64,000 bases of DNA, taken from positions 1,073-65,072 of the forward strand of contig JBJLGN010000021.1 of NCBI GenBank assembly GCA_045564835.1, written 5' to 3'. This document shows, piece after piece, positions 469 through 14,299 of this stretch (within the stretch, counting starts at the first letter, position 1; every line of letters begins with the position of its first letter). A program made the position numbers and the translations under genes. The stretch comes from Dehalococcoidia bacterium (GTDB lineage Bacteria; Chloroflexota; Dehalococcoidia; Lucifugimonadales; GCA-002694895). The notes under the pieces were generated by a model, which saw only the letters and a program-made list of their open reading frames with translations, made no database searches and had not been told where the DNA came from.

Positions 469-586
469 TCCTGGCGATTACTTATTGTCCCATATCGTTG
501 CCAATACAGTATCGTCAGCGCAAAAGCGTTTCACTTCCGTGTTCGGGATGGGAACGGGTGGGTCAACTTCGCCATAATCACCAGGA
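469..586 (-). rRNA. rrf: 5S ribosomal RNA
   Basis: The reverse complement reads TCCTGGTGATTATGGCGAAGTTGACCCACCCGTTCCCATCCCGAACACGGAAGTGAAACGC...GGGACAATAAGTAATCGCCAGGA. It carries the universal CCCATCCCGAACACGGAAGT core, and the termini form helix I (TCCTGGTGATT / AATCGCCAGGA). Confidence 0.92.
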
Positions 587-2236: not shown

Positions 2237-2346
2237 TACTCTCTTTTCTTGATTATAGGATTTATATATTTCATTATATATTCTAAAATCTTAATAAATA
2301 GCCGAAAATAATAAAAGTAATACAAATTAAAAAGAGGAGAAACAAA

Positions 2347-3117
2347 TTGAAATTTGCTGCAAATCTAACAATGCTATTCACAGAATATGATTTTTTAGAG
2401 AGATTTGAAAAAGCATACGAATACAAATTTAAAGCTGTAGAGTATTTGTTTCCGTATGCTTACGAACCTTCTGAATTAAAAAAATTGCTTGATGAATACA
2501 ATTTAATTCAAGCATTACACAATCTTCCTGCAGGTGATTGGGAAAAAGGAGAAAGAGGTATAGCTTGTAATCCTGACAAGATGCAAGATTTCAAAAATGG
2601 GGTTCAAACTGCTATTGAATACGCAAAAATATTAGATTGCAATAAACTTAATTGTTTGATTGGAATCCCTGAAGATAACTATTCAGAGAAAGATATTGAA
2701 AATTGCATATTAGAAAATTTGAAATATGCATCAAGTGAATTAGAAAAAGAAAACATTCATTTATTGATTGAACCTGTTAACACAATTGACATTCCCGGTT
2801 TTTATCTTAATACAACAAAACAAGCAAAAAATATTATAAATAAAATCAACTCAAATAATTTGTTTATTCAATACGATGTGTATCACATGCAAATTATGGA
2901 AGGGAATCTATCACTAACTATAAAAGAAAACTTGGATTTGATAAAACATATTCAAATTGCAGATCACCCTGGTAGACACGAACCAGGAACAGGTGAAATT
3001 AATTATGACTTTCTATTTTCTTATTTGAAATCACTAAATTACGAAGGATATATAGGATGTGAATACAATCCTGAAAGCAATACAGAAGAAGGATTAAAAT
3101 GGAAAAACAACTTTTAA
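2347..3117 (+). CDS. hyi: Hydroxypyruvate isomerase family TIM-barrel protein
   Basis: MKFAANLTMLFTEYDFLERFEKA...LHNLPAGDWEKGERGIACNP closely follows the Hyi N-terminal signature. TTG start, with AGGAG 8 nt upstream. Confidence 0.8.
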   Translation: MKFAANLTMLFTEYDFLERFEKAYEYKFKAVEYLFPYAYEPSELKKLLDEYNLIQALHNLPAGDWEKGERGIACNPDKMQDFKNGVQTAIEYAKILDCNKLNCLIGIPEDNYSEKDIENCILENLKYASSELEKENIHLLIEPVNTIDIPGFYLNTTKQAKNIINKINSNNLFIQYDVYHMQIMEGNLSLTIKENLDLIKHIQIADHPGRHEPGTGEINYDFLFSYLKSLNYEGYIGCEYNPESNTEEGLKWKNNF

Positions 3118-3425
3118 TAAATTATTCTAATATAATATTTGAGCTTAACGATAATAACATCGTAAAATACAACCTTGATTTAAAGTTTGATTCTTCAAAT
3201 TATTCTAGATGCATTGTAATTGTTAACTCCATCGAAGATCTACAAAAACAAGAAACATTTACCGAATTGAAAAAAAGTACTATGACATTATCTTTGCTCG
3301 TTCTATCAAATAATCCAACACATTTAGAAGAATATTCAGATAAATCAAGGTTTGAGTCTATAATTTCTGGAATAGATCAAAGTGATTTGAATGTTAGAAT
3401 AAATGAAATTTTAAATTTGGTATAA
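3099..3425 (+). CDS. Hypothetical protein (108 aa) leading the cofactor operon
   Basis: Overlaps the hyi end by 19 nt and ends 2 nt before moeA. No recognisable motif. Confidence 0.4.
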   Translation: MEKQLLINYSNIIFELNDNNIVKYNLDLKFDSSNYSRCIVIVNSIEDLQKQETFTELKKSTMTLSLLVLSNNPTHLEEYSDKSRFESIISGIDQSDLNVRINEILNLV

Positions 3426-3427
3426 GT

Positions 3428-4663
3428 ATGTCAGAATTCTTCGAAGTTGTTAGTCCAAATGAGGCTATCTCAAAAATGATATCACACAATGATTTTCCTA
3501 CCTTGAAATCTGAAACAGTTGATACTATTTCATGTCATAATCGTATAACTTCTGAAGATGTAATTTCAAACTCTGATTTACCTCATTTTGACAGATCATC
3601 AATGGATGGGTATGCAATCAAATCTAATGATTCAACAGGAGTTTCAAGTTCTTCTCCAAATTATATTAAAGTCACAGAAGAAATAAAAATGGGACATACT
3701 CCAAGTAAAAAATTAAAAAATGGAGAATGTGCAAGAATATTTACCGGCGGGATGATCCCGCAAGGTGCTGATTCGGTGATTATGGAAGAAGACACAGAAA
3801 TTTTAAATGATAATTTTATCGAAATTAAAAAATCTCTTTCAGTTGGCGAAAATATTATTTTCAAAGGAGAAGAAACAAAAAAAAATAAACTTATATTGTC
3901 CAAAGGTCACAAAATAAGATCTCAAGACATAGGAAGTATGCTTGAATCTGGTATAACAAAGTTAAAAGTTTATAAAAAATTAATAATTGGGGTTTTATCT
4001 TCTGGTGATGAATTGCTTGATCCTACAGAAGATTTACAACCAGCTAAAATTAGAGATATAAATACGTATACAATTTCTACATTAATAAAATCAACAGGAC
4101 ATAAAATCAAAAATTTTCCTATCATGCCTGACAACTTTGAGTCTCAGCTAGATCAGGCAAAAAAAGCTTTCAATGAATGTGATATCCTTATATTTTCTGC
4201 GGGTAGCTCGATAAGCTATAGAGATACAACATCAAAAGTAATCACAAATTTAGGATTACCAGGAATTCTAGTACACGGTGTGTCAGTTAAACCTGGTAAA
4301 CCTACAATACTTGCAATCTGCGACAAAAAAATAATAATAGGATTACCAGGTAATCCAGTGTCTGCAAGCATGATTTTTACTAATATAATTCGCCCAATTA
4401 TATACAGTACATATAATTTCGAGCCATTAGAACCATATGTGTTATGCCAATTAAACGATGATATAAGTTCTCACACAGGTAGAGTTGATTATGTTCCAGT
4501 AAAAATATCAATTAAAAACGGAATCTCTTATGCACAACCAATATTAGGAAAATCCAATTTAATAAATACGTTGGTTCATTCTGATGGGTATATTACAGTT
4601 CCTTCTGAAAAAAGAGGGGTATATAAAAACAGTACTGTTAAGGTAAGTATTTATGAACAATAA
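3428..4663 (+). CDS. moeA: Molybdopterin molybdenum/tungsten-transferase MoeA
   Basis: Motifs DRSSMDGYAI, SAGSS and GLPGNPVSA. The 411 aa length is typical. Confidence 0.85.
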   Translation: MSEFFEVVSPNEAISKMISHNDFPTLKSETVDTISCHNRITSEDVISNSDLPHFDRSSMDGYAIKSNDSTGVSSSSPNYIKVTEEIKMGHTPSKKLKNGECARIFTGGMIPQGADSVIMEEDTEILNDNFIEIKKSLSVGENIIFKGEETKKNKLILSKGHKIRSQDIGSMLESGITKLKVYKKLIIGVLSSGDELLDPTEDLQPAKIRDINTYTISTLIKSTGHKIKNFPIMPDNFESQLDQAKKAFNECDILIFSAGSSISYRDTTSKVITNLGLPGILVHGVSVKPGKPTILAICDKKIIIGLPGNPVSASMIFTNIIRPIIYSTYNFEPLEPYVLCQLNDDISSHTGRVDYVPVKISIKNGISYAQPILGKSNLINTLVHSDGYITVPSEKRGVYKNSTVKVSIYEQ

Positions 4664-6572
4664 TAAAAATAGAAATTATTATTTGGATGATATACCTATT
4701 GAAATAGCTTTAGAAAAATATTTCAACTCTCTTGAAAAATACCTAAGTGTTATCGATCATGAAGAAATACAAGTTACTGATTCGAATAACAAAATAACAT
4801 ATGAACCAATATTTGCAAAAATTTCTTCCCCAAATTTTAACCTGGCTGCAATGGATGGAATTTCAATTGATCATAAATCAACAATTGGGGCAACTGAAAC
4901 TTCACCTATAACCTTAAATTCAAATAAATTTTCATGGGTTGATACAGGGGACCCTATAGATGACAATCATGATGCAGTCATAATGATCGAAGACATTTCT
5001 AAAATATCTTCTCAAAATATCAGAATTTTTTCATCTGTACCTTCAATGTATAACGTAAGAGAAATTGGAGAAGATTTAATCCAATCTGAGATGATAATTC
5101 CTGAAAATACTAAAATAAACCATTTCGATATTGGAGTATGTCTTGCAGGTGGAGTTGATAGGATAAAGATTAAAAAACCTCTTTGCTCTAAATTTATTCC
5201 AACCGGAAATGAACTAATCAAATTAGGAGATGAATATTCCAAGGGAGATTTAATAGAATTTAACAGCTATGTTATTAATGGAATGTTAGATGAAATAGGA
5301 GTAATTACTGATACTTCTCCAATCATAAAAGATAAAAAAACAGATATAAAAAATGAAATATCTAAAGCTGTTAAAACTTTTGATCTTATTATAGTGAGTG
5401 CAGGTTCATCTGCAGGATCTGAAGATTACACAAAAGAAATAATAGAGGAATTGGGAGAAGTAATAGTACATGGAATTTCGATTAAGCCTGGGCATCCAGT
5501 TATTTTAGGTAAAATAAAAGATAAACCTGTAATTGGACTTCCAGGATATCCTGTTTCAGCAATTTTAATCAATGAATTAATAATAAAACCACTAATTGAA
5601 AAGAAATTAAAATATAAAATACACAAAAATGAACCTTTAAAAGCAAAATTAGCAAGAAAATTAAACTCCACAATTGGTGAAGATGAGTATATTCGGGCTA
5701 GTGTTGGAAAAATAAATTCAGAATACGTGGCTGTTCCATTACCAGGTGGAGCAGGAGTGATAAGCTCAATTCAAAAAGCAAATTGTTTAATAAAAATACC
5801 CAAAAATATCGAAGGCTATCAAAAAAACGAAGTTATAGAATTGTCTCCTTTAACTAATATTCAAAGTATAAATAACACAATTATTTGTAGCGGAAGCCAT
5901 GATTTAGTATTAGATTTACTTAAATCTTTTCTTTTAAAACAAGGGTTAGGCTACAATATGGCTATAAATCCTATTGGTAGTTTAGGGGGGTTATTAGCAA
6001 TAGATCAAAATATGTGCCATATAGCGGGAACACACATTTTTGATCCGGAAACAAATCAATATAACACCTCATACATAAACCAATTTATTAAAAACAACAA
6101 AGTAAAAACAATAACTCTTGTAGATAGAATTCAAGGAATAATAGTTCCTAAAAATAATCCTAAAAATATTAAAAAGTTAGATGATTTCAATAATCCTGAA
6201 TTGATTTTTGTTAATAGGCAAAAAGGTTCCGGAACAAGAATCTTACTCGATCACTTATTACAAAAAGCAAATATAAGTCCTCAATGTATACAAGGATATG
6301 ACAATGAAAAAAATTCACATCTTGCAGTATCGTATGCAATCCATTCTAAAAATGCAGATTACGGAATAGGGATTATGTCTTCTGCAAATGCATATGATTT
6401 AGGATTTGTCCCACTTAAAGAAGAACGCTTTGACCTTGTGATACCAGAAAATATATATGAACTAGATTACATACAAAAATTATTAGAGATTATTAACTCA
6501 GCAGAATTTATAAATTCTATAAATTCTATTGGAGGATATAATACTAAAAATACTGGTAAGGGTGTAAATTGA
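4653..6572 (+). CDS. moeA: MoeA paralog fused to a C-terminal periplasmic-binding-protein-like (oxyanion-binding type) domain
   Basis: The N-terminal ~400 aa has AAMDGISI, SAGSSAGSEDY and GLPGYPVSA. The C-terminal ~230 aa (IICSGSHDLVLD...NRQKGSGTRILLD...) resembles the PBP-like domain fused to MoeA in archaea and some bacteria. Confidence 0.8.
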   Translation: MNNNKNRNYYLDDIPIEIALEKYFNSLEKYLSVIDHEEIQVTDSNNKITYEPIFAKISSPNFNLAAMDGISIDHKSTIGATETSPITLNSNKFSWVDTGDPIDDNHDAVIMIEDISKISSQNIRIFSSVPSMYNVREIGEDLIQSEMIIPENTKINHFDIGVCLAGGVDRIKIKKPLCSKFIPTGNELIKLGDEYSKGDLIEFNSYVINGMLDEIGVITDTSPIIKDKKTDIKNEISKAVKTFDLIIVSAGSSAGSEDYTKEIIEELGEVIVHGISIKPGHPVILGKIKDKPVIGLPGYPVSAILINELIIKPLIEKKLKYKIHKNEPLKAKLARKLNSTIGEDEYIRASVGKINSEYVAVPLPGGAGVISSIQKANCLIKIPKNIEGYQKNEVIELSPLTNIQSINNTIICSGSHDLVLDLLKSFLLKQGLGYNMAINPIGSLGGLLAIDQNMCHIAGTHIFDPETNQYNTSYINQFIKNNKVKTITLVDRIQGIIVPKNNPKNIKKLDDFNNPELIFVNRQKGSGTRILLDHLLQKANISPQCIQGYDNEKNSHLAVSYAIHSKNADYGIGIMSSANAYDLGFVPLKEERFDLVIPENIYELDYIQKLLEIINSAEFINSINSIGGYNTKNTGKGVN

Positions 6573-7180
6573 AAAATTCTATACACGGAATTATTTTAGC
6601 TGGAGGAAAAAGTGAAAGACTTGGAAGGGATAAAGCTTTGGAATCATTTAACGGCAAGCCATTAATATCAAATGTTATATCCGCTATAAGAGAGCATGTT
6701 AATAACATAAGTATAGTGGTTAATAAAAACACAAGAAAAGAAGATCTTTATTTTCTTGATAATGTAAGTTTTATTGTAGATAAATACAAAAACGCAGGAT
6801 CACTTGGAGGTATTTACAGCGGATTGGAAAAGTCACCAAATCAAAATATTATAGTCTTTGCTTGCGACATGCCATTTATTTCAGGGAAAATAGTTTCATT
6901 TATGAAAAATAATATCACTTCAAAGTATGACATAATAATACCTGAAACAAATGGGTTTAAACATTCTACTCACGCCATTTATAGTAAAAATTGTTTACCG
7001 ATAATTAAAAAACAATTAATTAAAAAAGAATATAAAATTTCTAAAATATTCGACAAATGTAATACAAAAATACTTAAAGAAAACGATATCAATAAAATTG
7101 AATTAAATACAAAAAGCTTTTTCAATATTAATTACGATCACGATTTAGATAAGGCAAATCAAATATTATCAAATGAATAA
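6569..7180 (+). CDS. mobA: Molybdenum cofactor guanylyltransferase MobA
   Basis: GIILAGGKSERLGRDKA nucleotide-binding motif. TTG start overlaps the moeA2 stop. Confidence 0.8.
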   Translation: MKNSIHGIILAGGKSERLGRDKALESFNGKPLISNVISAIREHVNNISIVVNKNTRKEDLYFLDNVSFIVDKYKNAGSLGGIYSGLEKSPNQNIIVFACDMPFISGKIVSFMKNNITSKYDIIIPETNGFKHSTHAIYSKNCLPIIKKQLIKKEYKISKIFDKCNTKILKENDINKIELNTKSFFNINYDHDLDKANQILSNE

Positions 7181-7460
7181 AATTAAAATTAAAATAGAAT
7201 TCTTTGGAACAGCAAAGCTAATCGCCAAAAAAGATTTTATATATGTATCTACAGAAAAAAAAATTGAAGAAAAAGATCTTGTAGAAATAATAGCTTTAGC
7301 CATACCTGAATTTGTAGATAAAATAATTGAAAAGAATACCTTTGCATTAAAAAAAAGTTATAATCTTGGAATTAATGGTGTGAAAAATACTGGAAACAAA
7401 CATCTTTCATTAAAAAATAATGACTCTATACTAATATTTAGTAGTCAATCAGGAGGTTGA
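7173..7460 (+). CDS. moaD: MoaD/ThiS-family small sulfur-carrier-like protein
   Basis: 95 aa ending in ...SSQSGG followed directly by TGA. The C-terminal Gly-Gly is diagnostic. It sits immediately upstream of aor. Confidence 0.7.
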   Translation: MNKIKIKIEFFGTAKLIAKKDFIYVSTEKKIEEKDLVEIIALAIPEFVDKIIEKNTFALKKSYNLGINGVKNTGNKHLSLKNNDSILIFSSQSGG

Positions 7461-7463
7461 TTT

Positions 7464-9242
7464 TTGCAAGGATACAACAACAAATACCTGCTAATTAATT
7501 TAGACAACCATACTTCTGAAGAAAAAATATTAGATGGTGAAATACTTGCAAATTATATTGGAGGAACAGGGTTAAGTACCTATTTGTTACATAAATATTC
7601 ATCTCCCAAAGTAGACTCTTTTGCCCCTCAAAATCCACTTGTATTCGCTTCAAGCCCTTTAACTGGAACCAAACTAACAACAACAAGTAAATTTTCTATT
7701 GCTACAAAATCACCTCTAACTGATTTTATAGGAGACTCGATGTCATCAAGTCATTTTTCAGACAAATTAAAAAAAACAGGATTTGATGCATTAGTGATTA
7801 TAGGTAAATCAAATAAAAAATCATTAATCAAAATCTCAAACTCAAATATCAGCTTTGTAGATGCATCAAAAATATGGGGGAAACATACAAGCGAAACAGA
7901 AATGATTTTAAATGAAAAAATTGGCAGTAATTATTCTTATGCAACGATAGGTCCTGCAGGTGAAAATTTAGTAAGGTTTGCTGGAATAAAAAATGATGGA
8001 GGAAGAATGGCCGCACGAACAGGCGTTGGCGCAGTTATGGGTTCAAAAAATATTAAAGCAATTGCAGTAGGCGGAGATATAAGCATTTCAATATCTAATC
8101 CTCAAAAAATAAATGATATAAGAAAAAAATTATCCAAAAAAAGCCTTGGAGAGAGTACTGAAAAATATAGAACAACAGGCACTACAATAAATATGTCATT
8201 GCTAAATAGATTAGAAATGTTACCCACTAATAATTTCTCAGAATCTATATTCAAAGAATCAGAAAAAATTGAAGGTGAAAATTTAATAAAAAATCATTTC
8301 TCCGAAAAAGCTCATTGTGCAAACTGTACAATTGGATGTGAAAAAATTTTTGTTACTAATGATAAAAATGAAAAAATAAAATCAAGACTTGAATTTCAAA
8401 CTACAGCAAGCTTAGGCTCGAATATTGGGGTAAGTAACCCAAATTGGATAATTAGAGCTGCTAAGCTTTGTGATGAATTAGGCTTGGACACAATAAGCAC
8501 AGGCGTAACAATAGGATGGGCTATAGAAGCTTCTAAAAATGGACATCTTAAACACAGTATAGATATTAGTTCCGAATCAAAATTATTAAATTTAATAAAA
8601 AACATCGCTTATAGGAAATCTGTTGGAAATTTACTGGCTGAAGGATCAAAATTAGCATCAGATATTACTGGAAAAAATTCTAATTTATACGCAATGCATG
8701 TAAAAGGACTTGAAATACCTTCTTATGATCCCAGAAACTTGCCAGCTCTAGCTTTAGCTTTATCTGTAAGTACAAAAGGAGCATGTCATAACAGAGCAAG
8801 TGCGTATGATATTGATTTTAACAACAAGCAAATATTTGAAGATCCGACACTTATAGCAAAAAAAACAAAAGAAAGTGAAGATTTGTCTGCAGTTATAGAC
8901 TCAATGATATGGTGTAAGTTTCTAAGGAAATCATTTGATGATTTATATGCTGAAAGTTCTGATATTTATTCATTAATAACAGGTGAACAATTTACAGAAA
9001 CCCATATTAAAATTGCTGGAGAAAGAATAAATAATTTGAAAAAATTGTTTAATATCGAAAATGGATGGTCAAGAATTGATGACAATTTACCAAATAGATT
9101 ACTTGAAAGTAATAACAAAAAAAATCAAATCATATCTAAAAACTTCTTGGATTCAATGATTAGTAATTATTATCATTTCAGAGAATGGGATAAGAATGGT
9201 AATATACCTAATAATAAACTTAAATCTTTGAATATAAGTTGA
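7464..9242 (+). CDS. aor: Aldehyde:ferredoxin oxidoreductase family (tungsto/molybdo-pterin) catalytic subunit
   Basis: N-terminus ...NKYLLINLDNHTSEEKILDGEILANYIGGTGLSTYLL. CANCTIGC (CxxCxxxC) plus a later KGACHNRA Cys provide the [4Fe-4S] ligands. Length 592 aa. Confidence 0.9.
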   Translation: MQGYNNKYLLINLDNHTSEEKILDGEILANYIGGTGLSTYLLHKYSSPKVDSFAPQNPLVFASSPLTGTKLTTTSKFSIATKSPLTDFIGDSMSSSHFSDKLKKTGFDALVIIGKSNKKSLIKISNSNISFVDASKIWGKHTSETEMILNEKIGSNYSYATIGPAGENLVRFAGIKNDGGRMAARTGVGAVMGSKNIKAIAVGGDISISISNPQKINDIRKKLSKKSLGESTEKYRTTGTTINMSLLNRLEMLPTNNFSESIFKESEKIEGENLIKNHFSEKAHCANCTIGCEKIFVTNDKNEKIKSRLEFQTTASLGSNIGVSNPNWIIRAAKLCDELGLDTISTGVTIGWAIEASKNGHLKHSIDISSESKLLNLIKNIAYRKSVGNLLAEGSKLASDITGKNSNLYAMHVKGLEIPSYDPRNLPALALALSVSTKGACHNRASAYDIDFNNKQIFEDPTLIAKKTKESEDLSAVIDSMIWCKFLRKSFDDLYAESSDIYSLITGEQFTETHIKIAGERINNLKKLFNIENGWSRIDDNLPNRLLESNNKKNQIISKNFLDSMISNYYHFREWDKNGNIPNNKLKSLNIS

Positions 9243-9243
9243 A

Positions 9244-10872
9244 ATGCAGGACAATCAAAACAGAAATACAAAAGAATTATTAACTAGTAACTTTAAGCCA
9301 CAAAAAAGTTCACTTCTTCAATCATTGCACATGATTCAAAAAGAAAACGGTTACGTATCAGAAAATGATATGCTAGTGCTATCTAGATACTTAAAAGTTT
9401 CTAAAAGTGAAATATACGGTGCAATAACCAGTTATCCAGAAATTCATACATCTATAAATTCAGAACTTCAAGAATGCACTGGTCTCTCTTGTTATATTAA
9501 TAACAGTAATATTAGTAATAATACTACTGATTGTAAATTTAAATGTTTTGAAGGGCCGATAGCAATTCAAAATCATAATATATACTCTAAATCAAGTGGT
9601 AAATACATAGAGAAAAATTCACTGAAAACCCCAATTATCGATTCTTCTGCAATACTTGATAAACCCATATTATTAGAGAATATGGATCACAAAAAAGACT
9701 ATGAATCATATAATTCAGTTTATAAATTCAGTGCTTTAAAAGAAACTTTAAATAAAGATCCACTTGAAATAATAAATATTATTGAAGAGTCAGGACTTAG
9801 AGGAAGAGGTGGCGCCTATTTCCCAACTGCCACAAAATGGAAAATGGCTAGTGGTAATAAATCTATTCAAAAATATTTAATTGTAAATTGCGAAGAAGGT
9901 GAACCTGGAGTATTTAAAGATAGATTGATAATGGAGAATATGCCTTACATGTTGATTGAAGGAGCAATAATAGCTTCCTATGCAACTAACTGCACTGATT
10001 TAGTTTTTTATATTAACGGAGAAGCAGAAAAAAGTTTTAAAACATTGAAAAATGCTTTAATAAAATTGCAACAAAATAATATTATCGATGAAAATGGTAT
10101 GATTTTTAATTCTTCTTACAAATTGAAGATAAAATTAGAATCTGGTGCGGGGGGGTACGTCTGTGGAGAAGAAACAACACTTCTTAATACAATGGAAGGT
10201 AATAGAAGAGAACCAAGGTTAAAACCACCCTTCCCTACTGAAAAAGGAGTTTTCAGCTTACCTACTATAATTAACAATGCTGAAACATTATGTAATGTTA
10301 CTTATATATTAACCCATTCAGTAAAAGATTATAAAATGGTTGGTGATAAAGATTTTCCAGGAACTAAATTATTAAGTGTTAGTGGACATTTCAAAATGAA
10401 TGGAATTATAGAAATTCCTATGGGAATTACAATTAATGATTTATTAGATAAAACAAAATTAGAAAGCCCCACTGATAAAATAAAATACTTAGCCATTGGT
10501 GGTCCTTCAAGTGGACTATTGCCAAGATCTGAATTTGAAACAAGTTTGAAAGGTGGGTTTTTAAATTCAAATGGCATAATGATGGGAGCTGGAGGTTTTA
10601 TTGGTATAAATTCAACGATTGATCCAATAGATATCATTATTAATTTAGCTGAGTACAATGCAGACGAATCATGTGGAAAATGTACTCCATGCAGAGAAGG
10701 TACTCCAAGATTGGTAGAGCAATTAAAACAAATAAAATCAATTTCAGATAAAGATAAATATAAAGATGAATTGAATTTATTAGCAGAAACAGTTAATCTA
10801 GCATCACTTTGTGGCTTAGGACAAGCAGCTGGAAATCCTATAATTAGCTATCTAAAATATTTTTATGATTAA
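9244..10872 (+). CDS. fdsB: NAD(H)-binding diaphorase subunit, NuoE-like domain fused to NuoF-like domain (FdsB-type)
   Basis: GLRGRGGAYFPTATKWK (FMN/NADH site) and ESCGKCTPCREG ([4Fe-4S]). The N-terminal NuoE-like region has CTGLSC...CKFKC. It starts 1 nt after the aor stop. Confidence 0.85.
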   Translation: MQDNQNRNTKELLTSNFKPQKSSLLQSLHMIQKENGYVSENDMLVLSRYLKVSKSEIYGAITSYPEIHTSINSELQECTGLSCYINNSNISNNTTDCKFKCFEGPIAIQNHNIYSKSSGKYIEKNSLKTPIIDSSAILDKPILLENMDHKKDYESYNSVYKFSALKETLNKDPLEIINIIEESGLRGRGGAYFPTATKWKMASGNKSIQKYLIVNCEEGEPGVFKDRLIMENMPYMLIEGAIIASYATNCTDLVFYINGEAEKSFKTLKNALIKLQQNNIIDENGMIFNSSYKLKIKLESGAGGYVCGEETTLLNTMEGNRREPRLKPPFPTEKGVFSLPTIINNAETLCNVTYILTHSVKDYKMVGDKDFPGTKLLSVSGHFKMNGIIEIPMGITINDLLDKTKLESPTDKIKYLAIGGPSSGLLPRSEFETSLKGGFLNSNGIMMGAGGFIGINSTIDPIDIIINLAEYNADESCGKCTPCREGTPRLVEQLKQIKSISDKDKYKDELNLLAETVNLASLCGLGQAAGNPIISYLKYFYD

Positions 10873-13591
10873 AGATGATATGAAAAAAATAAATATACTT
10901 ATAGATGGAAAGAAAATATCTGTTCCACAAAATTATACAGTGCTTGATGCAATTAACAAGAATAAGCAATATATTTCTCAATTGTGTAAAGACCAAGATA
11001 TGAAAGCTTTAGGAGCTTGTAGAACTTGCTTGGTAGAAATCGAAGGAATAAGAGGCTTGCCAGCCTCTTGTTCTCAACCAGTAAGTGATGGAATGAAAAT
11101 CAAAACATATGGTGAGAATCTAGATAAAATAAGGAATAATGTATTGTCTTTAACTTCAGGTATGTTAACAGAAAGTAAATCTAAAAAAGATTACAAAGAT
11201 TTAAGTAAAGCCGTAAATCATTATGGAGTTAACGACAATAAATACGCTGGCCGAAAAAGAGAAAAAACTGATAAGAGTAATACAGTATTTGATATAGCAA
11301 TGGAAGATTGTATATTATGCGGGAGATGCACAACAGGATGCCAAGAAGGTGCACAATTTATTGGTGCGATAGATATTCTTGGAACAGGTAAAAATACGAA
11401 AATTGGTACTTTTAATGACGAACCTCTAGCTGAGTCTGTATGCACAACTTGTGGCCAATGTTTATCAGTTTGCCCTACAGGAGCTATAAAGAAAAAACCT
11501 GAACCAAAAAATGTTACAAAATCTGTAACCACAACATGTCCATACTGCGGTGTAGGTTGTGGTATTAACATAGAAGTGGACAAAAACAACGAAATGGTAA
11601 ATGTCACTGATGACCCTAACAACAAATCAAGCTTAGGTATGTTATGTGTAAAAGGCAGATTCGGATATAGATTTGTCCAACATAAAGACAGGATAAAAAC
11701 ACCATTAATTAAAAAAGATGGAATATTTTTCGAGTCATCTTGGGAAGAAGCAATAGATTTAATAGCTGAAAAATTAAGTGGATATATTGGTAATTCATTT
11801 GCTACTTTGTGTTCTGCAAAAGCCACCAATGAAGACGGTTATATACAACAAAAATTTTCAAGAGTTGTAATGAAAAGTAATAATATTGATCACTGTACAA
11901 GACTTTGCCATTCTCCTTCTGTAGAAGCAATGTTAAAGTCTTTAGGTAGTGGAGCTACTAGTAATTCATATATAGATTACGAGGAAGCTGGTTGCTTGAT
12001 TATTGCGGGATCAGACGCAAATTCAAACCACCCTGTTGCAGCTTCAAGAATGAGAAGAGCTGTTATTGAAAAAGGAGCTAAATTAATTATTATTAATCCT
12101 AGAAGAATAGAAATGTGTGATTACGCTGATCTATGGCTTCGCCCAAAGCCTGGTACAGATGTTGCCTTACTAAATAGCATAGCAAAAGTTATTTTAGATA
12201 AAAACCTACAAAATAATAAATTTATATCAGAGCGAACTGAGGGATATGATGAATGGAAAAAAATCATAGATGACTACAGTCCCGAAAAAGTTGAAAAAAT
12301 CACTGGAGTTAAAGCAGAAGATATAATCCAAGCTGCAGAGTATTATGCAAAACCAAAATTTGGTGGATCTTGTTTGATTTGGGGAATGGGTATTACTCAA
12401 CACACAAATGGAACAGCTAATGCTCATTCTCTTTTAAATCTATCATTGGTAACTGGAGAATTAGGAAAACCAGGATCAGGAATATCACCTTTAAGAGGTC
12501 AAAACAATGTGCAAGGCTGCGGTGATGCAGGTTGTCTCCCTAATTCATTTTCGGGTTATCAGGTAATTGATCAGGAAACAGTAAATAAATTTAAAAAAGA
12601 ATGGAAAACTGATGAACTACCAATTAAGCATGGATATGTAGTAACAGATATGATCAAAAAGATTGAAGAAGGGATTGTAAAAGCAATGTATATTACTGGT
12701 GAAAACCCATTATTAAGTGAACCTGATTTATCTCACGCTGAAGAAACATTTAAAAAATTAGAGTTCTTAGTAGTTCAAGATCTATTTTTGCATGAAACAG
12801 CTCAAATTGCAGATGTAGTTTTACCTGCGTCTAGTTTCGCTGAAAAAGAAGGAACTTTTACTAATAGTGAAAGAAGAGTGCAAAGAGTAAGAGCTGCAAT
12901 AAACCCTGTAGGAGAATCAAAACCTGACTGGGAAATAATTCAATTAATAGCAAATAAAATTGCTGATAAATTGTCGATTGATTTAAAAAAACAATTCAGT
13001 TATGAATCTCCATCTGAAATATGGGATGAAATGTCTAATTTGACTCCAAGTATTTCAGGTATTAATTATGAAAGACTTAACAACGAAGGTGGTATCCAAT
13101 GGCCATGTCCTGATAAGCACCACCCAGGAACACGATATTTGTATGAATCAGACTTTCCAAGAGGAGACAGAGCCAAATTCTTTGGATACAAACAAGGTCC
13201 AAGAGCTGATGAAATTCCAACAAAAAGATACCCTCTAACTTTAATTACTGGTAGAATTTTGTACCATTGGCATGGAGGAACTATAACAAAAAGATCTGAA
13301 TATTTACTATCAAAAGCCAGTGAACTTGAAGTATCAATGAACCAAAAAGATGGCGATAAATTTGGTATTAAAAATGGTGATTGGATAAGTGTTGAGTCAA
13401 AGCGTGGAAAACTAGAAGCAAGAGCTTATATTACTGATAATATGTCTGTTGGTGAAATTTTTGTTCCTTTCGTAAAATTGCAAAATCACGCAGCTAATTT
13501 TTTGACCAATCCAGCTGTTGATCCAGATTCTAAAATTCCTGAATATAAAGTATGTGCAGTAAAAATATCTAAAGTTCTTACAAAAGTATAA
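10865..13591 (+). CDS. fdsA: NAD-dependent formate dehydrogenase alpha subunit (Mo/W-bis-PGD), Cys type
   Basis: N-terminal 2Fe-2S motif (CRTCLVEIEG) and ferredoxin motifs CILCGRCTTGC and CTTCGQCLSVCPTGA, then CPYCGVGCG. Active-site context CTRLCHSPS has Cys, not Sec. Overlaps fdsB by 8 nt. Confidence 0.9.
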   Translation: MIKDDMKKINILIDGKKISVPQNYTVLDAINKNKQYISQLCKDQDMKALGACRTCLVEIEGIRGLPASCSQPVSDGMKIKTYGENLDKIRNNVLSLTSGMLTESKSKKDYKDLSKAVNHYGVNDNKYAGRKREKTDKSNTVFDIAMEDCILCGRCTTGCQEGAQFIGAIDILGTGKNTKIGTFNDEPLAESVCTTCGQCLSVCPTGAIKKKPEPKNVTKSVTTTCPYCGVGCGINIEVDKNNEMVNVTDDPNNKSSLGMLCVKGRFGYRFVQHKDRIKTPLIKKDGIFFESSWEEAIDLIAEKLSGYIGNSFATLCSAKATNEDGYIQQKFSRVVMKSNNIDHCTRLCHSPSVEAMLKSLGSGATSNSYIDYEEAGCLIIAGSDANSNHPVAASRMRRAVIEKGAKLIIINPRRIEMCDYADLWLRPKPGTDVALLNSIAKVILDKNLQNNKFISERTEGYDEWKKIIDDYSPEKVEKITGVKAEDIIQAAEYYAKPKFGGSCLIWGMGITQHTNGTANAHSLLNLSLVTGELGKPGSGISPLRGQNNVQGCGDAGCLPNSFSGYQVIDQETVNKFKKEWKTDELPIKHGYVVTDMIKKIEEGIVKAMYITGENPLLSEPDLSHAEETFKKLEFLVVQDLFLHETAQIADVVLPASSFAEKEGTFTNSERRVQRVRAAINPVGESKPDWEIIQLIANKIADKLSIDLKKQFSYESPSEIWDEMSNLTPSISGINYERLNNEGGIQWPCPDKHHPGTRYLYESDFPRGDRAKFFGYKQGPRADEIPTKRYPLTLITGRILYHWHGGTITKRSEYLLSKASELEVSMNQKDGDKFGIKNGDWISVESKRGKLEARAYITDNMSVGEIFVPFVKLQNHAANFLTNPAVDPDSKIPEYKVCAVKISKVLTKV

Positions 13592-14299
13592 TTAATCAGA
13601 GACCTCAATTCTTAGCCTCTTATTATTTTTACCTTTACTTTGATGGCCTGTCATTTTGATATACCCAACTTCTGAAGTATTATGAACATGAGTCCCACCA
13701 TCAGCTTGTAAATCTAATCCTTCAATATCAACAATTCTGATTTCATTTATACCTTTGGGTAGTAAATTAATTTTAGTTCTAATTAAATCAGGAATGTCGA
13801 ATGCTTCATCTCTTGGTAAATCATATACTTTAATATTCCTTGACAACTCAATTTCTTTATTTATTTTTTCTTCAACTTCTTTAGAAAAATCAACCGACAT
13901 TTCTTCAAGCTCAAAATCCATTCTTCCAGATAAGGGTTTCATATCACCTCCTGTTACAGACGCACCATAATCTCTCCAAACAACTCCACATAAAATATGT
14001 AAAGCTGTGTGCGTTCTCATCAGTTTATATCTATGGTCCCAATCAATAATCGAATCAACTTCTAATCCAATAGCAGGTTTTGTTCCTTCTATGATATGGA
14101 TGATTTGACCATCAATTTTTTTTAAATTCTTAACAACAAATTCATTTTTCTCAAATTTTAATATTCCTTTATCAGAAGGTTGTCCACCACCTCCTGGATA
14201 AAACACAGTTTGATCTAAAATAACACCGTGATCATTAACCTCATTAATCTTTGACTTACATTGCTTTAAATAACTATCTTTGTAACATAAAACATCCAT
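13592..14299 (-). CDS. alaX: Alanyl-tRNA editing protein AlaX (AlaX-M type)
   Basis: HTALHIL and GGTHV editing-domain zinc motifs. Length 235 aa. Confidence 0.8.
   Translation of the reverse strand: MDVLCYKDSYLKQCKSKINEVNDHGVILDQTVFYPGGGGQPSDKGILKFEKNEFVVKNLKKIDGQIIHIIEGTKPAIGLEVDSIIDWDHRYKLMRTHTALHILCGVVWRDYGASVTGGDMKPLSGRMDFELEEMSVDFSKEVEEKINKEIELSRNIKVYDLPRDEAFDIPDLIRTKINLLPKGINEIRIVDIEGLDLQADGGTHVHNTSEVGYIKMTGHQSKGKNNKRLRIEVSD

Follow-up and report, generated by a model that had tools for sequence, protein, structure and literature searches.

A clade-wide Dehalococcoidia/SAR202 gene cassette for pterin-cofactor maturation proteins, an AOR-family aldehyde oxidoreductase and a putative MeFDH1-type formate dehydrogenase

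Introduction

WorABCSL of Acetomicrobium mobile is an electron-bifurcating tungsten aldehyde oxidoreductase (PMC12318220) of the Bfu family (PMC9304861). Its AOR-family subunit WorL reaches the NuoG-like subunit WorA only via the polyferredoxin nanowire of WorS; WorA itself lacks the catalytic C-terminal (pterin) domain, an adaptor helix forming its end, and the WorS adaptor reaches its cluster A4 (PMC12318220). WorS is also part of the remaining multi-subunit WOR types of the same clade, namely the N type (AorABC-like) and the U type (membrane-linked) (PMC12318220). Here we analyze a 64,000-nucleotide (nt) stretch of DNA from a Dehalococcoidia bacterium (contig JBJLGN010000021.1, assembly GCA_045564835.1), referred to throughout as the window, in which a gene for an AOR-family aldehyde oxidoreductase (aor) stands directly in front of genes for a fused NuoE/NuoF-like protein (NuoE/F) and for the alpha subunit of a formate dehydrogenase (FDH), FdhA. 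These three close an array that also encodes pterin-cofactor maturation proteins. The window has ~30% G+C and its source belongs to a low-GC marine lineage of the Dehalococcoidia.

In bifurcating enzymes the BfuB subunit is equipped with clusters B2-B5, among them those of a C-terminal 2x[4Fe-4S] domain (IPR017896) and a [2Fe-2S] cluster at the N-terminus, whereas the non-bifurcating FdsB and Nqo1 lack these extra clusters (PMC9304861). Among the latter kind of enzyme, MeFDH1 of Methylobacterium extorquens is the closest described system for the FDH genes of the window. According to its structure report, it is an alpha-beta heterodimer, the alpha subunit of which holds a tungsten-bis-molybdopterin guanine dinucleotide (W-bis-MGD) along with three clusters of the [4Fe-4S] type and one [2Fe-2S] cluster, and lacks the extra cluster found in RcFDH, the Rhodobacter capsulatus enzyme, at its dimer interface (PMC10869683). 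The same report describes the beta subunit as FdsG and FdsB in one chain, without the N-terminal domain of FdsB, and describes the enzyme as having no FdsD (PMC10869683).

An initial annotation of the window saw a single flavin mononucleotide (FMN)/NAD(H) module flanked by two different pterin-dependent catalytic subunits, and proposed that both are wired into one diaphorase or that the AOR borrows the electron-transfer chain of the FDH. It added that no characterized complex with this layout was known. For the general idea that remark is outdated: WorABCSL (PDB 9MQX) joins an AOR to a NuoEFG-type module, so that the wiring of an AOR-family enzyme to an NAD module of this kind has a solved precedent. 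For the locus itself we put forward, with belief and doubt about evenly divided, a different reading, namely a conserved pterin-cofactor supra-operon for two Mo/W-pterin enzymes that act autonomously, along with the maturation genes for their cofactors.

Results

Profile searches confirmed the NuoE-like and NuoF 51-kDa domains that had been called for the fusion protein and, for the gene downstream of it, the call of a molybdopterin oxidoreductase and Cys-type FdhA, which is carried by its domains, by TIGR01591 and by two active-site motifs. FdhA consists of Fer2_4, two Fer4, Molybdop_Fe4S4, Molybdopterin and Molydop_binding domains, with the active-site Cys-His in the motif RLCHSPSV and the conserved Arg in RGQNNVQG. 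Its predicted clusters are one [2Fe-2S], two ferredoxin-type [4Fe-4S] and the cluster of Molybdop_Fe4S4, and two CxxCxxCxxxC motifs were present in 77/79 members of the FdhA clade. The best PDB matches were to MeFDH1 (7VW6/7E5Z, 632 bits) and then to R. capsulatus FdsA (575 bits). The motif for a His-ligated [4Fe-4S] cluster (HPLDCLTCAANGDC in R. capsulatus FdsA) was absent from all 79 FdhA proteins of the clade, which carry a Cys-free linker instead; alignment with 6TG9 and 7VW6 showed that MeFDH1 alpha also has a Cys-free linker in this position.

Judged by their sequences, NuoE/F and FdhA would make up a complete enzyme of a characterized kind, the heterodimeric NAD-dependent FDH of the MeFDH1 type, in which no third subunit is needed. 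The picture of one diaphorase module between two catalytic subunits overlooks this enzyme. Nor was it accurate to state that fdsG is lacking, because it is fused: the NuoE-like N-terminus of NuoE/F is the predicted FdsG equivalent, and the whole protein corresponds to FdsG plus FdsB. The companion statement, that the window holds no fdsD or fdhD, held good, neither being found among the scanned window ORFs (open reading frames).

The NuoF part of the fusion has the expected FMN, NAD and [4Fe-4S] motifs. Both the fusion and its SAR202 homologs stop at the NuoF core, with no C-terminal Fer4/ferredoxin domain detected by domain search or alignment. The best PDB matches of the NuoF part were B subunits of bifurcating enzymes (NfnB 9N5U, StnB 8OH5 and HydB 7Q4V). 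The NuoE-like region is homologous to the separate NuoE of SAR202 bacteria, and its cysteine pattern C-x4-C...C-x3-C was kept in all eight close relatives (all four Cys in 9/9 lineage members). The loop between the cysteines measures 13 residues in the window protein (13–15 in its lineage), compared with 26–37 in separate SAR202 NuoE, and the fusion also lacks the ~125-residue N-terminal domain of SAR202 NuoF. An AlphaFold2 model of NuoE/F had a mean predicted local distance difference test (pLDDT) score of 67, with residues 53–109 below 50, so that it is unreliable at the shortened putative [2Fe-2S] site. Given that SAR202 relatives have separate nuoE and nuoF genes, the fusion may have arisen independently of MeFDH1 beta. 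MAFFT aligned three cysteines of the NuoE-like part (window 9244–9640) with the three-Cys, thioredoxin-like domain at the N-terminus of SAR202 NuoF, so that a chimeric make-up from two homologous domains is possible for the fusion.

Searches with AOR profiles likewise confirmed both the N- and the C-terminal domain of the AOR over its full length. The best PDB matches were to the Pyrococcus furiosus enzyme (1AOR, 338 bits, full length) followed by WorL (9MQX_D, 318 bits), and 9MQX was among the matches of the NuoF part as well. The [4Fe-4S] ligands C285, C288, C292 and C484 (motif CANCTIGC plus Cys484) correspond to C288, C291, C295 and C494 of P. furiosus AOR, and E310 and H442 to its E313 and H448; the four Cys, E310 and H442 were invariant in the AOR alignment. 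The pterin-binding motif DELGLDTIS is also present and aligned with that of P. furiosus AOR. In comparison with this monomeric enzyme the window AOR has no extra domain or extension, and by gene content it would be a single-subunit "M-type" AOR in the typology of the Adams laboratory. As the active-site, cluster, FMN and NAD motifs are kept, the AOR, FdhA and the NuoF part all look functional.

To see how far the gene order extends, an AOR alignment was scanned against one genome per species (185 k species) and the 80 best loci were considered. Loci (labelled L001 onward) were surveyed by tblastn, and 73 had contigs long enough to judge. All of the 80 best AOR loci came from metagenome-assembled genomes of Dehalococcoidia, SAR202 or Chloroflexota, bar one "uncultured bacterium". 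The scan names the window's lineage as Dehalococcoidia. On this ground an archaeal source, which the AlaXM, moaD_arch and PRK14498 matches had brought to mind, was rejected, as was a Clostridium-like one suggested by the 30% GC. In 69/73 evaluable species-level genomes aor, nuoE, nuoF and fdhA were intact and kept both their order and their common strand, and the surveyed loci ranged from 30 to 68% G+C with AOR identity down to 45%. The survey was also run in reverse: aor lay directly upstream in 4/4 NuoF clusters chosen independently of AOR, and in three further NuoF clusters on contigs reached from the AOR side (7/7 in total). The order is thus not limited to one genome and holds from either gene; recurring in dozens of genomes with different flanks, it goes well past anything that chance would give.

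In close relatives of the NuoE/F fusion (64–90% identity; marine metagenomes; L001–L005, L011 and L012) the whole 20-kb neighborhood is collinear, unrelated genes included. Since this by itself shows collinearity of a single lineage, the distant relatives with different flanks are decisive. SAR202/Chloroflexota contigs with AORs ~50% identical to that of the window carry moeA, moeA-PBP (a fusion with a periplasmic-binding-protein-like domain), mobA, a small ORF, aor, nuoE, nuoF and fdhA in entirely different flanks, with nuoE and nuoF as separate genes. Distance matrices of all eight cassette proteins were congruent (raw r 0.76–0.97), suggesting that the cassette has been inherited as a unit.

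Spacing within the cassette varied. The gap was ≤20 nt at 25/87 aor-nuoE and 19/78 nuoF-fdhA junctions, and >300 nt at 30/87 and 31/78, respectively. Overlaps or short gaps between aor and nuoE occurred in several lineages (+1 in the window, -23 in L001/L012 and -4 in L034/L044). The aor-nuoE and nuoF-fdhA gaps were also hot spots for same-strand insertions of toxin-antitoxin or defense genes, each in about one third of genomes; the kinds seen were nucleotidyltransferase/HEPN-like, TIR, HicAB-like, DUF433 with PIN-like, and Uma2 (examples at L006:11816-12725, L033:13927-14992 and L021:11858-12404). Because such insertions fill both the aor-nuoE gap and the intra-enzyme nuoF-fdhA gap, they say nothing against the AOR belonging to the unit. 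The moaD-aor and nuoE-nuoF junctions were almost never interrupted.

Four loci showed partial cassettes. In L086 (9900–13800) aor is intact; nuoE, nuoF and fdhA are missing, as is a ~214-residue ORF that follows fdhA elsewhere (see below), and ilvD/edd comes directly after aor. In L083 (11700–14700) aor is again intact, with nuoF cut down to the last ~32 codons at its C-terminal end and fdhA broken up into several frames and internally deleted. The survival of aor in these two loci suggests that the AOR is able to work without the FDH. In L043 (10001–21800) and L078 (10001–21842), aor-nuoE-nuoF is intact and ordinary metabolic genes occupy the position of fdhA: enoyl-CoA hydratase and aminotransferase genes follow nuoF in one, major facilitator superfamily (MFS) transporter and thiolase genes in the other.

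In the window, nine plus-strand ORFs lie back to back over 2347–13591 with only overlaps or gaps of a few bases between them (Table 1), and they probably form a single, co-transcribed nine-gene operon. The four ORFs originally listed (7173–7460, 7464–9242, 9244–10872 and 10865–13591) are all present, and their co-orientation and tight coupling in one array were borne out. The moaD-like stop codon is followed by AGGAGG and, 7 nt further on, by the TTG start of aor, a start backed by this AGGAGG and by orthologue consensus. The aor stop codon (TGA, 9240–9242) is separated by one base from the ATG of nuoE/F at 9244, in agreement with the 1-nt gap first reported. The 8-nt overlap reported at the next junction fared less well. 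Behind the nuoE/F stop (TAA, 10870–10872) fdhA has in-frame ATGs at 10865 (the 8-nt overlap) and at 10880 (a 7-nt gap), and the second is likelier, since same-lineage orthologues begin with MKK, MKN or MDN after the nuoE/F stop; the junction is tight either way. The idea that coupling marks the subunits of an enzyme is unsupported, because the junctions of the Hyi-like gene, the 108-residue ORF, moeA, moeA-PBP, mobA and the moaD-like gene are equally tight.

Table 1. Features of the nine-gene array and its borders (window coordinates; bit scores with family cutoffs where available).
Feature	Position	Strand	Evidence or remark
Divergent intergenic region, likely promoter region	2237..2346	.	Sole sizeable non-coding gap upstream of array
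Hydroxypyruvate/2-oxo-tetronate isomerase-like (Hyi-like) TIM-barrel gene	2347..3117	+	PF01261; TIGR03234 353.9 bits (cutoff 353.45); NF043033 351 (cutoff 325)
108-aa ORF, function unknown	3099..3425	+	19-nt overlap with Hyi-like gene
MoeA, molybdopterin metal-insertion enzyme	3428..4663	+	MoeA_N, MoCF_biosynth, MoeA_C
MoeA fused to periplasmic-binding-protein-like domain (PRK14498 type)	4653..6572	+	PF12727 PBP_like E 2e-63; NF011068 668 bits (cutoff 534)
MobA	6569..7180	+	PF12804; best NCBIfam NF001457 156 bits, just under cutoff 164
MoaD/ThiS-like small protein, 95 aa	7173..7460	+	C-terminus ...QSGG (Gly-Gly)
AOR-family (WorL-type) aldehyde oxidoreductase	7464..9242	+	AFOR_N PF02730 E 7e-66; AFOR_C PF01314 E 1e-100
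FDH beta: NuoE-like (putative [2Fe-2S]) domain fused to NuoF core (FMN, NAD(H), [4Fe-4S])	9244..10872	+	2Fe-2S_thioredx (residues 15-92), Complex1_51K, NADH_4Fe-4S
FDH alpha, Cys-type, putative Mo/W-bis-MGD	10880..13591 (alternative in-frame start 10865)	+	TIGR01591 775 bits (cutoff 666)
AlaXM-type alanyl-tRNA editing protein	13592..14299	-	Best NCBIfam NF040865, 281 bits, below cutoff 300

The cofactor genes proved as much a part of the cassette as the enzyme genes. At most related loci moeA was kept, and mobA was found in all related cassettes. MobA is the guanylyltransferase that makes bis-MGD, which is needed by FdhA and not by AOR. The MoeA-PBP fusion, standing beside plain MoeA, was conserved in the cassette across the clade and is a candidate for selection between W and Mo at cofactor insertion. 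The product of 7173–7460 is weakly MoaD-like (TIGR01687, E 2e-4, below cutoff), and its SAR202 orthologues match ThiS weakly; this gene invariably precedes aor, at a median gap of 4 nt and within 20 nt in 70/83 loci. It overlaps mobA, and the junctions of the cofactor genes, moaD-aor included, were the tightest in the cassette.

What heads the cassette differs between lineages. The Hyi-like gene was found upstream in the low-GC relatives L001–L005 and not in SAR202 cassettes, which have fhs (formate-tetrahydrofolate ligase) in that position; fhs heads the cassette in 44 loci, about half of the SAR202 relatives. A zinc-dependent alcohol dehydrogenase (Zn-ADH) gene was nearby in 26 surveyed loci. 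The product of hydroxypyruvate isomerase is an aldehyde, tartronate semialdehyde, which, as a speculation, could be a substrate of the AOR. The 108-residue ORF behind the Hyi-like gene had no match in Pfam and NCBIfam searches and was conserved weakly (30–36% identity), within the same lineage only. At the other end, at least 42 SAR202/Dehalococcoidia cassettes have an ORF of ~214 residues directly 3' of fdhA, the position of fdsC/fdsD in fdsGBACD (examples at L006:17634-18278, L009:16615-17286 and L092:14484-15137), with invariant residues that include W46, H68-E69, N86-P87 and D117-W-Q-R120. It was considered as an FdsC, FdsD or FdhD analogue and rejected, having no Pfam, NCBIfam or PDB match even when a profile was used, and it is absent from the window.

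Upstream, the array is bordered by intergenic 2237–2346, which lies between a minus-strand GFO/IDH/MocA gene (1181–2236) and the plus-strand gene at 2347. It contains a promoter-like site at 2261–2289 (TTTATA-17-TAAAAT, 9/12, a consensus match only), which is weak evidence because such sites are not commoner here than in shuffled sequence. The 3' boundary is the convergent AlaXM gene. The fdhA stop codon (TAA, 13589–13591) abuts that of AlaXM (13592–13594, minus strand), the spacer being 0 nt and a terminator-like hairpin absent, an extreme of gene packing that is typical of a streamlined genome. The remainder of the window encodes ordinary heterotroph functions, and no ferredoxin, polyferredoxin, FdhD, FdsD or W/Mo transporter was found among its scanned ORFs. 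A 5S rRNA gene was seen at 469–585 (minus strand; Rfam RF00001, 88 bits) beside a thioredoxin/AhpC-like gene; the 64 kb contain neither a 16S nor a 23S gene.

Discussion

Our gene-content, motif and synteny analyses are consistent with two enzymes that share a cofactor supply. In the reading that we favor, the last two genes would encode a self-sufficient, NAD+-dependent FDH of the MeFDH1 type. Formate oxidation would take place at FdhA's metal site, a Cys-ligated bis-MGD center, and, by homology, electrons would pass from the [4Fe-4S] cluster of the Molybdop domain through the two ferredoxin-type [4Fe-4S] clusters to the [2Fe-2S] cluster of FdhA, and from there through the [4Fe-4S] cluster of the beta subunit and FMN to NAD+; the NuoE-type [2Fe-2S] cluster would lie off the electron path, as in MeFDH1. 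The AOR would act alone, with a tungsto-bispterin (or Mo) center and one [4Fe-4S] cluster, converting aldehydes to acids and probably making no physical contact with the FDH. The acceptor of its electrons would be soluble, most probably a ferredoxin from another locus.

What holds the genes together would then be the shared metal-pterin supply, with MoeA, MoeA-PBP and the MoaD-like protein shared or linked to the AOR and MobA serving the FDH. The two enzymes probably also stand in the same catabolic stream, from aldehyde to acid (possibly formaldehyde to formate) and from formate to CO2. As fhs heads the cassette in about half of the SAR202 relatives, the operon appears to be built around formate, and it is plausible that the AOR supplies the acid, possibly formate from formaldehyde. 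The cassette is probably co-regulated and may serve one aldehyde/formate oxidation stream. In SAR202 genome papers an FDH ends the tetrahydrofolate-linked C1 oxidation route and formaldehyde-producing reactions are noted; AOR and tungsten are not mentioned there (PMC5395668, PMC5864207).

Several observations weigh against two independent enzymes. The linkage is unusually strict and old, being kept in 69/73 genomes over 30–68% G+C and down to 45% AOR identity, and recovered in all seven NuoF look-ups, and the sharing of a cofactor would by itself explain so faithful an association only poorly. At the aor-nuoE junction the fractions of gap sizes and of toxin-antitoxin insertions are similar to those at the intra-enzyme nuoF-fdhA junction. 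L043 and L078 keep aor-nuoE-nuoF without an adjacent fdhA, a hint that the core pair may consist of aor and the diaphorase genes. The cassette has no linked ferredoxin gene, as judged from the scanned window ORFs, and there are AOR-family genes beside NuoEFG-like genes that do encode one complex (PMC12318220, PMC9304861).

These are the observations that speak for an alternative which we regard as possible but rather doubtful, and which is close to the initial proposal. In it the AOR, through its surface-near [4Fe-4S] cluster, would dock without an adaptor, with FdhA or the NuoE/F diaphorase as its partner, and the result would be a two-headed aldehyde/formate:NAD+ oxidoreductase. Aldehyde oxidation would then serve to reduce NAD+ at the common FMN, or else CO2 at the site of the FDH; in a variant, AOR and FdhA would be alternative partners of one diaphorase. 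Docking would account for the strict placement of aor directly upstream of nuoE, seen from either gene over deep divergence, for the start/stop overlaps or 1-nt gaps at this junction in several lineages, for the retention of aor-nuoE-nuoF in L043 and L078 and for the lack of a linked ferredoxin gene. It has solved or proposed precedents of AOR-family proteins on NuoEFG-like modules (WorABCSL 9MQX and Bam), and an NAD-linked AOR would presumably suit the largely aerobic SAR202 cells.

However, the known WOR complexes all need a polyferredoxin adaptor, and a WorS/AorA-type polyferredoxin was not found in the 64-kb window, where FdhA is the sole ORF with CxxCxxCxxxC. A search for Cys-rich, ferredoxin-type ORFs in the intergenic inserts of ~90 related cassettes also found none. 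The NuoG-like protein of the window is, unlike WorA, a full FdhA ending with Molydop_binding, so that the space in which WorS docks at cluster A4 of WorA would here be filled by a full FDH domain. AOR and FdhA show no clade-specific extra domain, the Cys-free linker of FdhA being shared with MeFDH1, which is not known to have an AOR partner. The window lineage has deleted the N-domain of NuoF and shortened NuoE, which argues against these parts as an essential dock, and L083 and L086 have kept aor after losing the FDH module. Rate covariation among 41 non-redundant cassettes (mirror-tree, partial correlation) gave 0.11 for NuoE-NuoF, 0.05 for NuoE-FdhA and 0.39 for MoeA-MobA, and is uninformative on AOR-FDH because the positive controls NuoE-NuoF and NuoE-FdhA failed. 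Of the shared diaphorase or borrowed FDH chain first proposed, then, the genetic linkage and a precedent stand, whereas the polyferredoxin bridge is absent and aor is kept where the FDH is lost.

A bifurcating enzyme of the Wor-Bfu or Fdh-Bfu kind, in which aldehyde or formate oxidation would reduce NAD+ and ferredoxin simultaneously, is very improbable. The best PDB matches of the NuoF part are indeed B subunits of bifurcating enzymes, and aor adjoins NuoEFG-like genes as in Wor-Bfu, but the NuoF part lacks the extra clusters that define BfuB, with its C-terminal 2x[4Fe-4S] domain (B3/B4) and N-terminal [2Fe-2S] cluster (B5): domain search and alignment found neither a Fer4 domain nor a C-terminal extension, and WorS is absent. 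Least credible of all is an incidental adjacency that reflects genome collinearity within one narrow lineage, as the 20-kb collinearity of the closest relatives (64–90% identity) might suggest, for order and strand are kept with different flanks across 30–68% GC and at 45–54% AOR identity, and the eight cassette proteins have congruent distance matrices (raw r 0.76–0.97); both this and the bifurcating enzyme are effectively excluded.

Few bacteria of the dark ocean are as abundant as SAR202/Dehalococcoidia, which presumably oxidize recalcitrant organic matter and C1 units. The clade-wide cassette, which combines a cofactor-maturation set, a tungsten-type AOR and an MeFDH1-type NAD-FDH and is often headed by formate-tetrahydrofolate ligase, appears to be undescribed in the searchable literature. 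Read conservatively, as two autonomous enzymes, it suggests that a tungstoenzyme of a classically "anaerobic" kind has a part to play in pelagic bacteria, and it outlines a concrete path by which aldehyde and formate reach CO2; NuoE/F would be a natural case of a streamlined lineage fusing subunits and losing a domain. If, on the other hand, the FDH or its diaphorase carried a docked AOR, electrons from a tungsten aldehyde center and a formate center would meet at a single FMN and go on to NAD+. WOR complexes would thereby gain a fifth type, one without an adaptor and with a new WOR-NAD+ coupling, and the first enzyme would be known in which two different pterin active sites share one Fe-S/flavin chain. 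A tungsten enzyme would then take part in carbon oxidation in a bacterial clade that is among the most abundant of the deep ocean, and the complex might offer a compact, possibly oxygen-tolerant scaffold for biocatalysis of CO2, formate or acid reduction.

Comparison With Known Systems

The array resembles WorABCSL (9MQX) in that an AOR-family subunit is likewise encoded beside NuoG-, NuoF- and NuoE-like genes, with WorB matching the NuoF part. WorABCSL has, in addition, WorS, a WorA with an adaptor helix and no pterin domain, the B3/B4/B5 clusters of WorB and electron bifurcation, features that the window lacks. AorABC of Aromatoleum aromaticum (8C0Z) also couples an AOR-family enzyme to NAD+ reduction, and AorB matches the window AOR with 251 bits; it uses the polyferredoxin AorA and the flavin adenine dinucleotide (FAD) subunit AorC, neither of which is encoded in the window or the cassette. 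With P. furiosus AOR (1AOR) the window AOR shares the length class, the catalytic Glu and His, the four Cys, the pterin motifs and the lack of a small-subunit gene. The setting differs: here the host is a mesophilic, probably largely aerobic bacterium, and aor is placed between cofactor genes and those of an NAD-FDH.

On the FDH side, the FdsGBA(CD) enzymes of R. capsulatus and Cupriavidus necator (6TGA, 6VW7) have the same three functional modules and a NuoF of the non-bifurcating type, and SAR202 relatives share their gene order, nuoE(fdsG)-nuoF(fdsB)-fdhA(fdsA). FdsA carries the HPLDCLTCAANGDC His-ligated cluster, whereas the whole clade of the window FdhA lacks it; no fdsC or fdsD homolog was detectable, the ORF of ~214 residues that follows fdhA in SAR202 cassettes being unrelated. 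With MeFDH1 (the W-FDH1 or Fdh1AB of strain AM1; 7VW6, 7E5Z) the window shares the design of a beta subunit with a (here putative) FdsG-like [2Fe-2S] domain fused to a NuoF core, the lack of the FdsB N-domain, the lack of FdsD and the cluster set of the alpha subunit (three [4Fe-4S] and one [2Fe-2S], with no extra cluster). The beta subunits align over the NuoF core only (residues 152–542), and in the NuoE-like domain of NuoE/F the loop between the cysteines is, at 13 residues, much shorter. We know of no AOR partner for MeFDH1. The accessible part of its structure report mentions none (PMC10869683), whereas in the window the FDH genes sit behind an aor gene.

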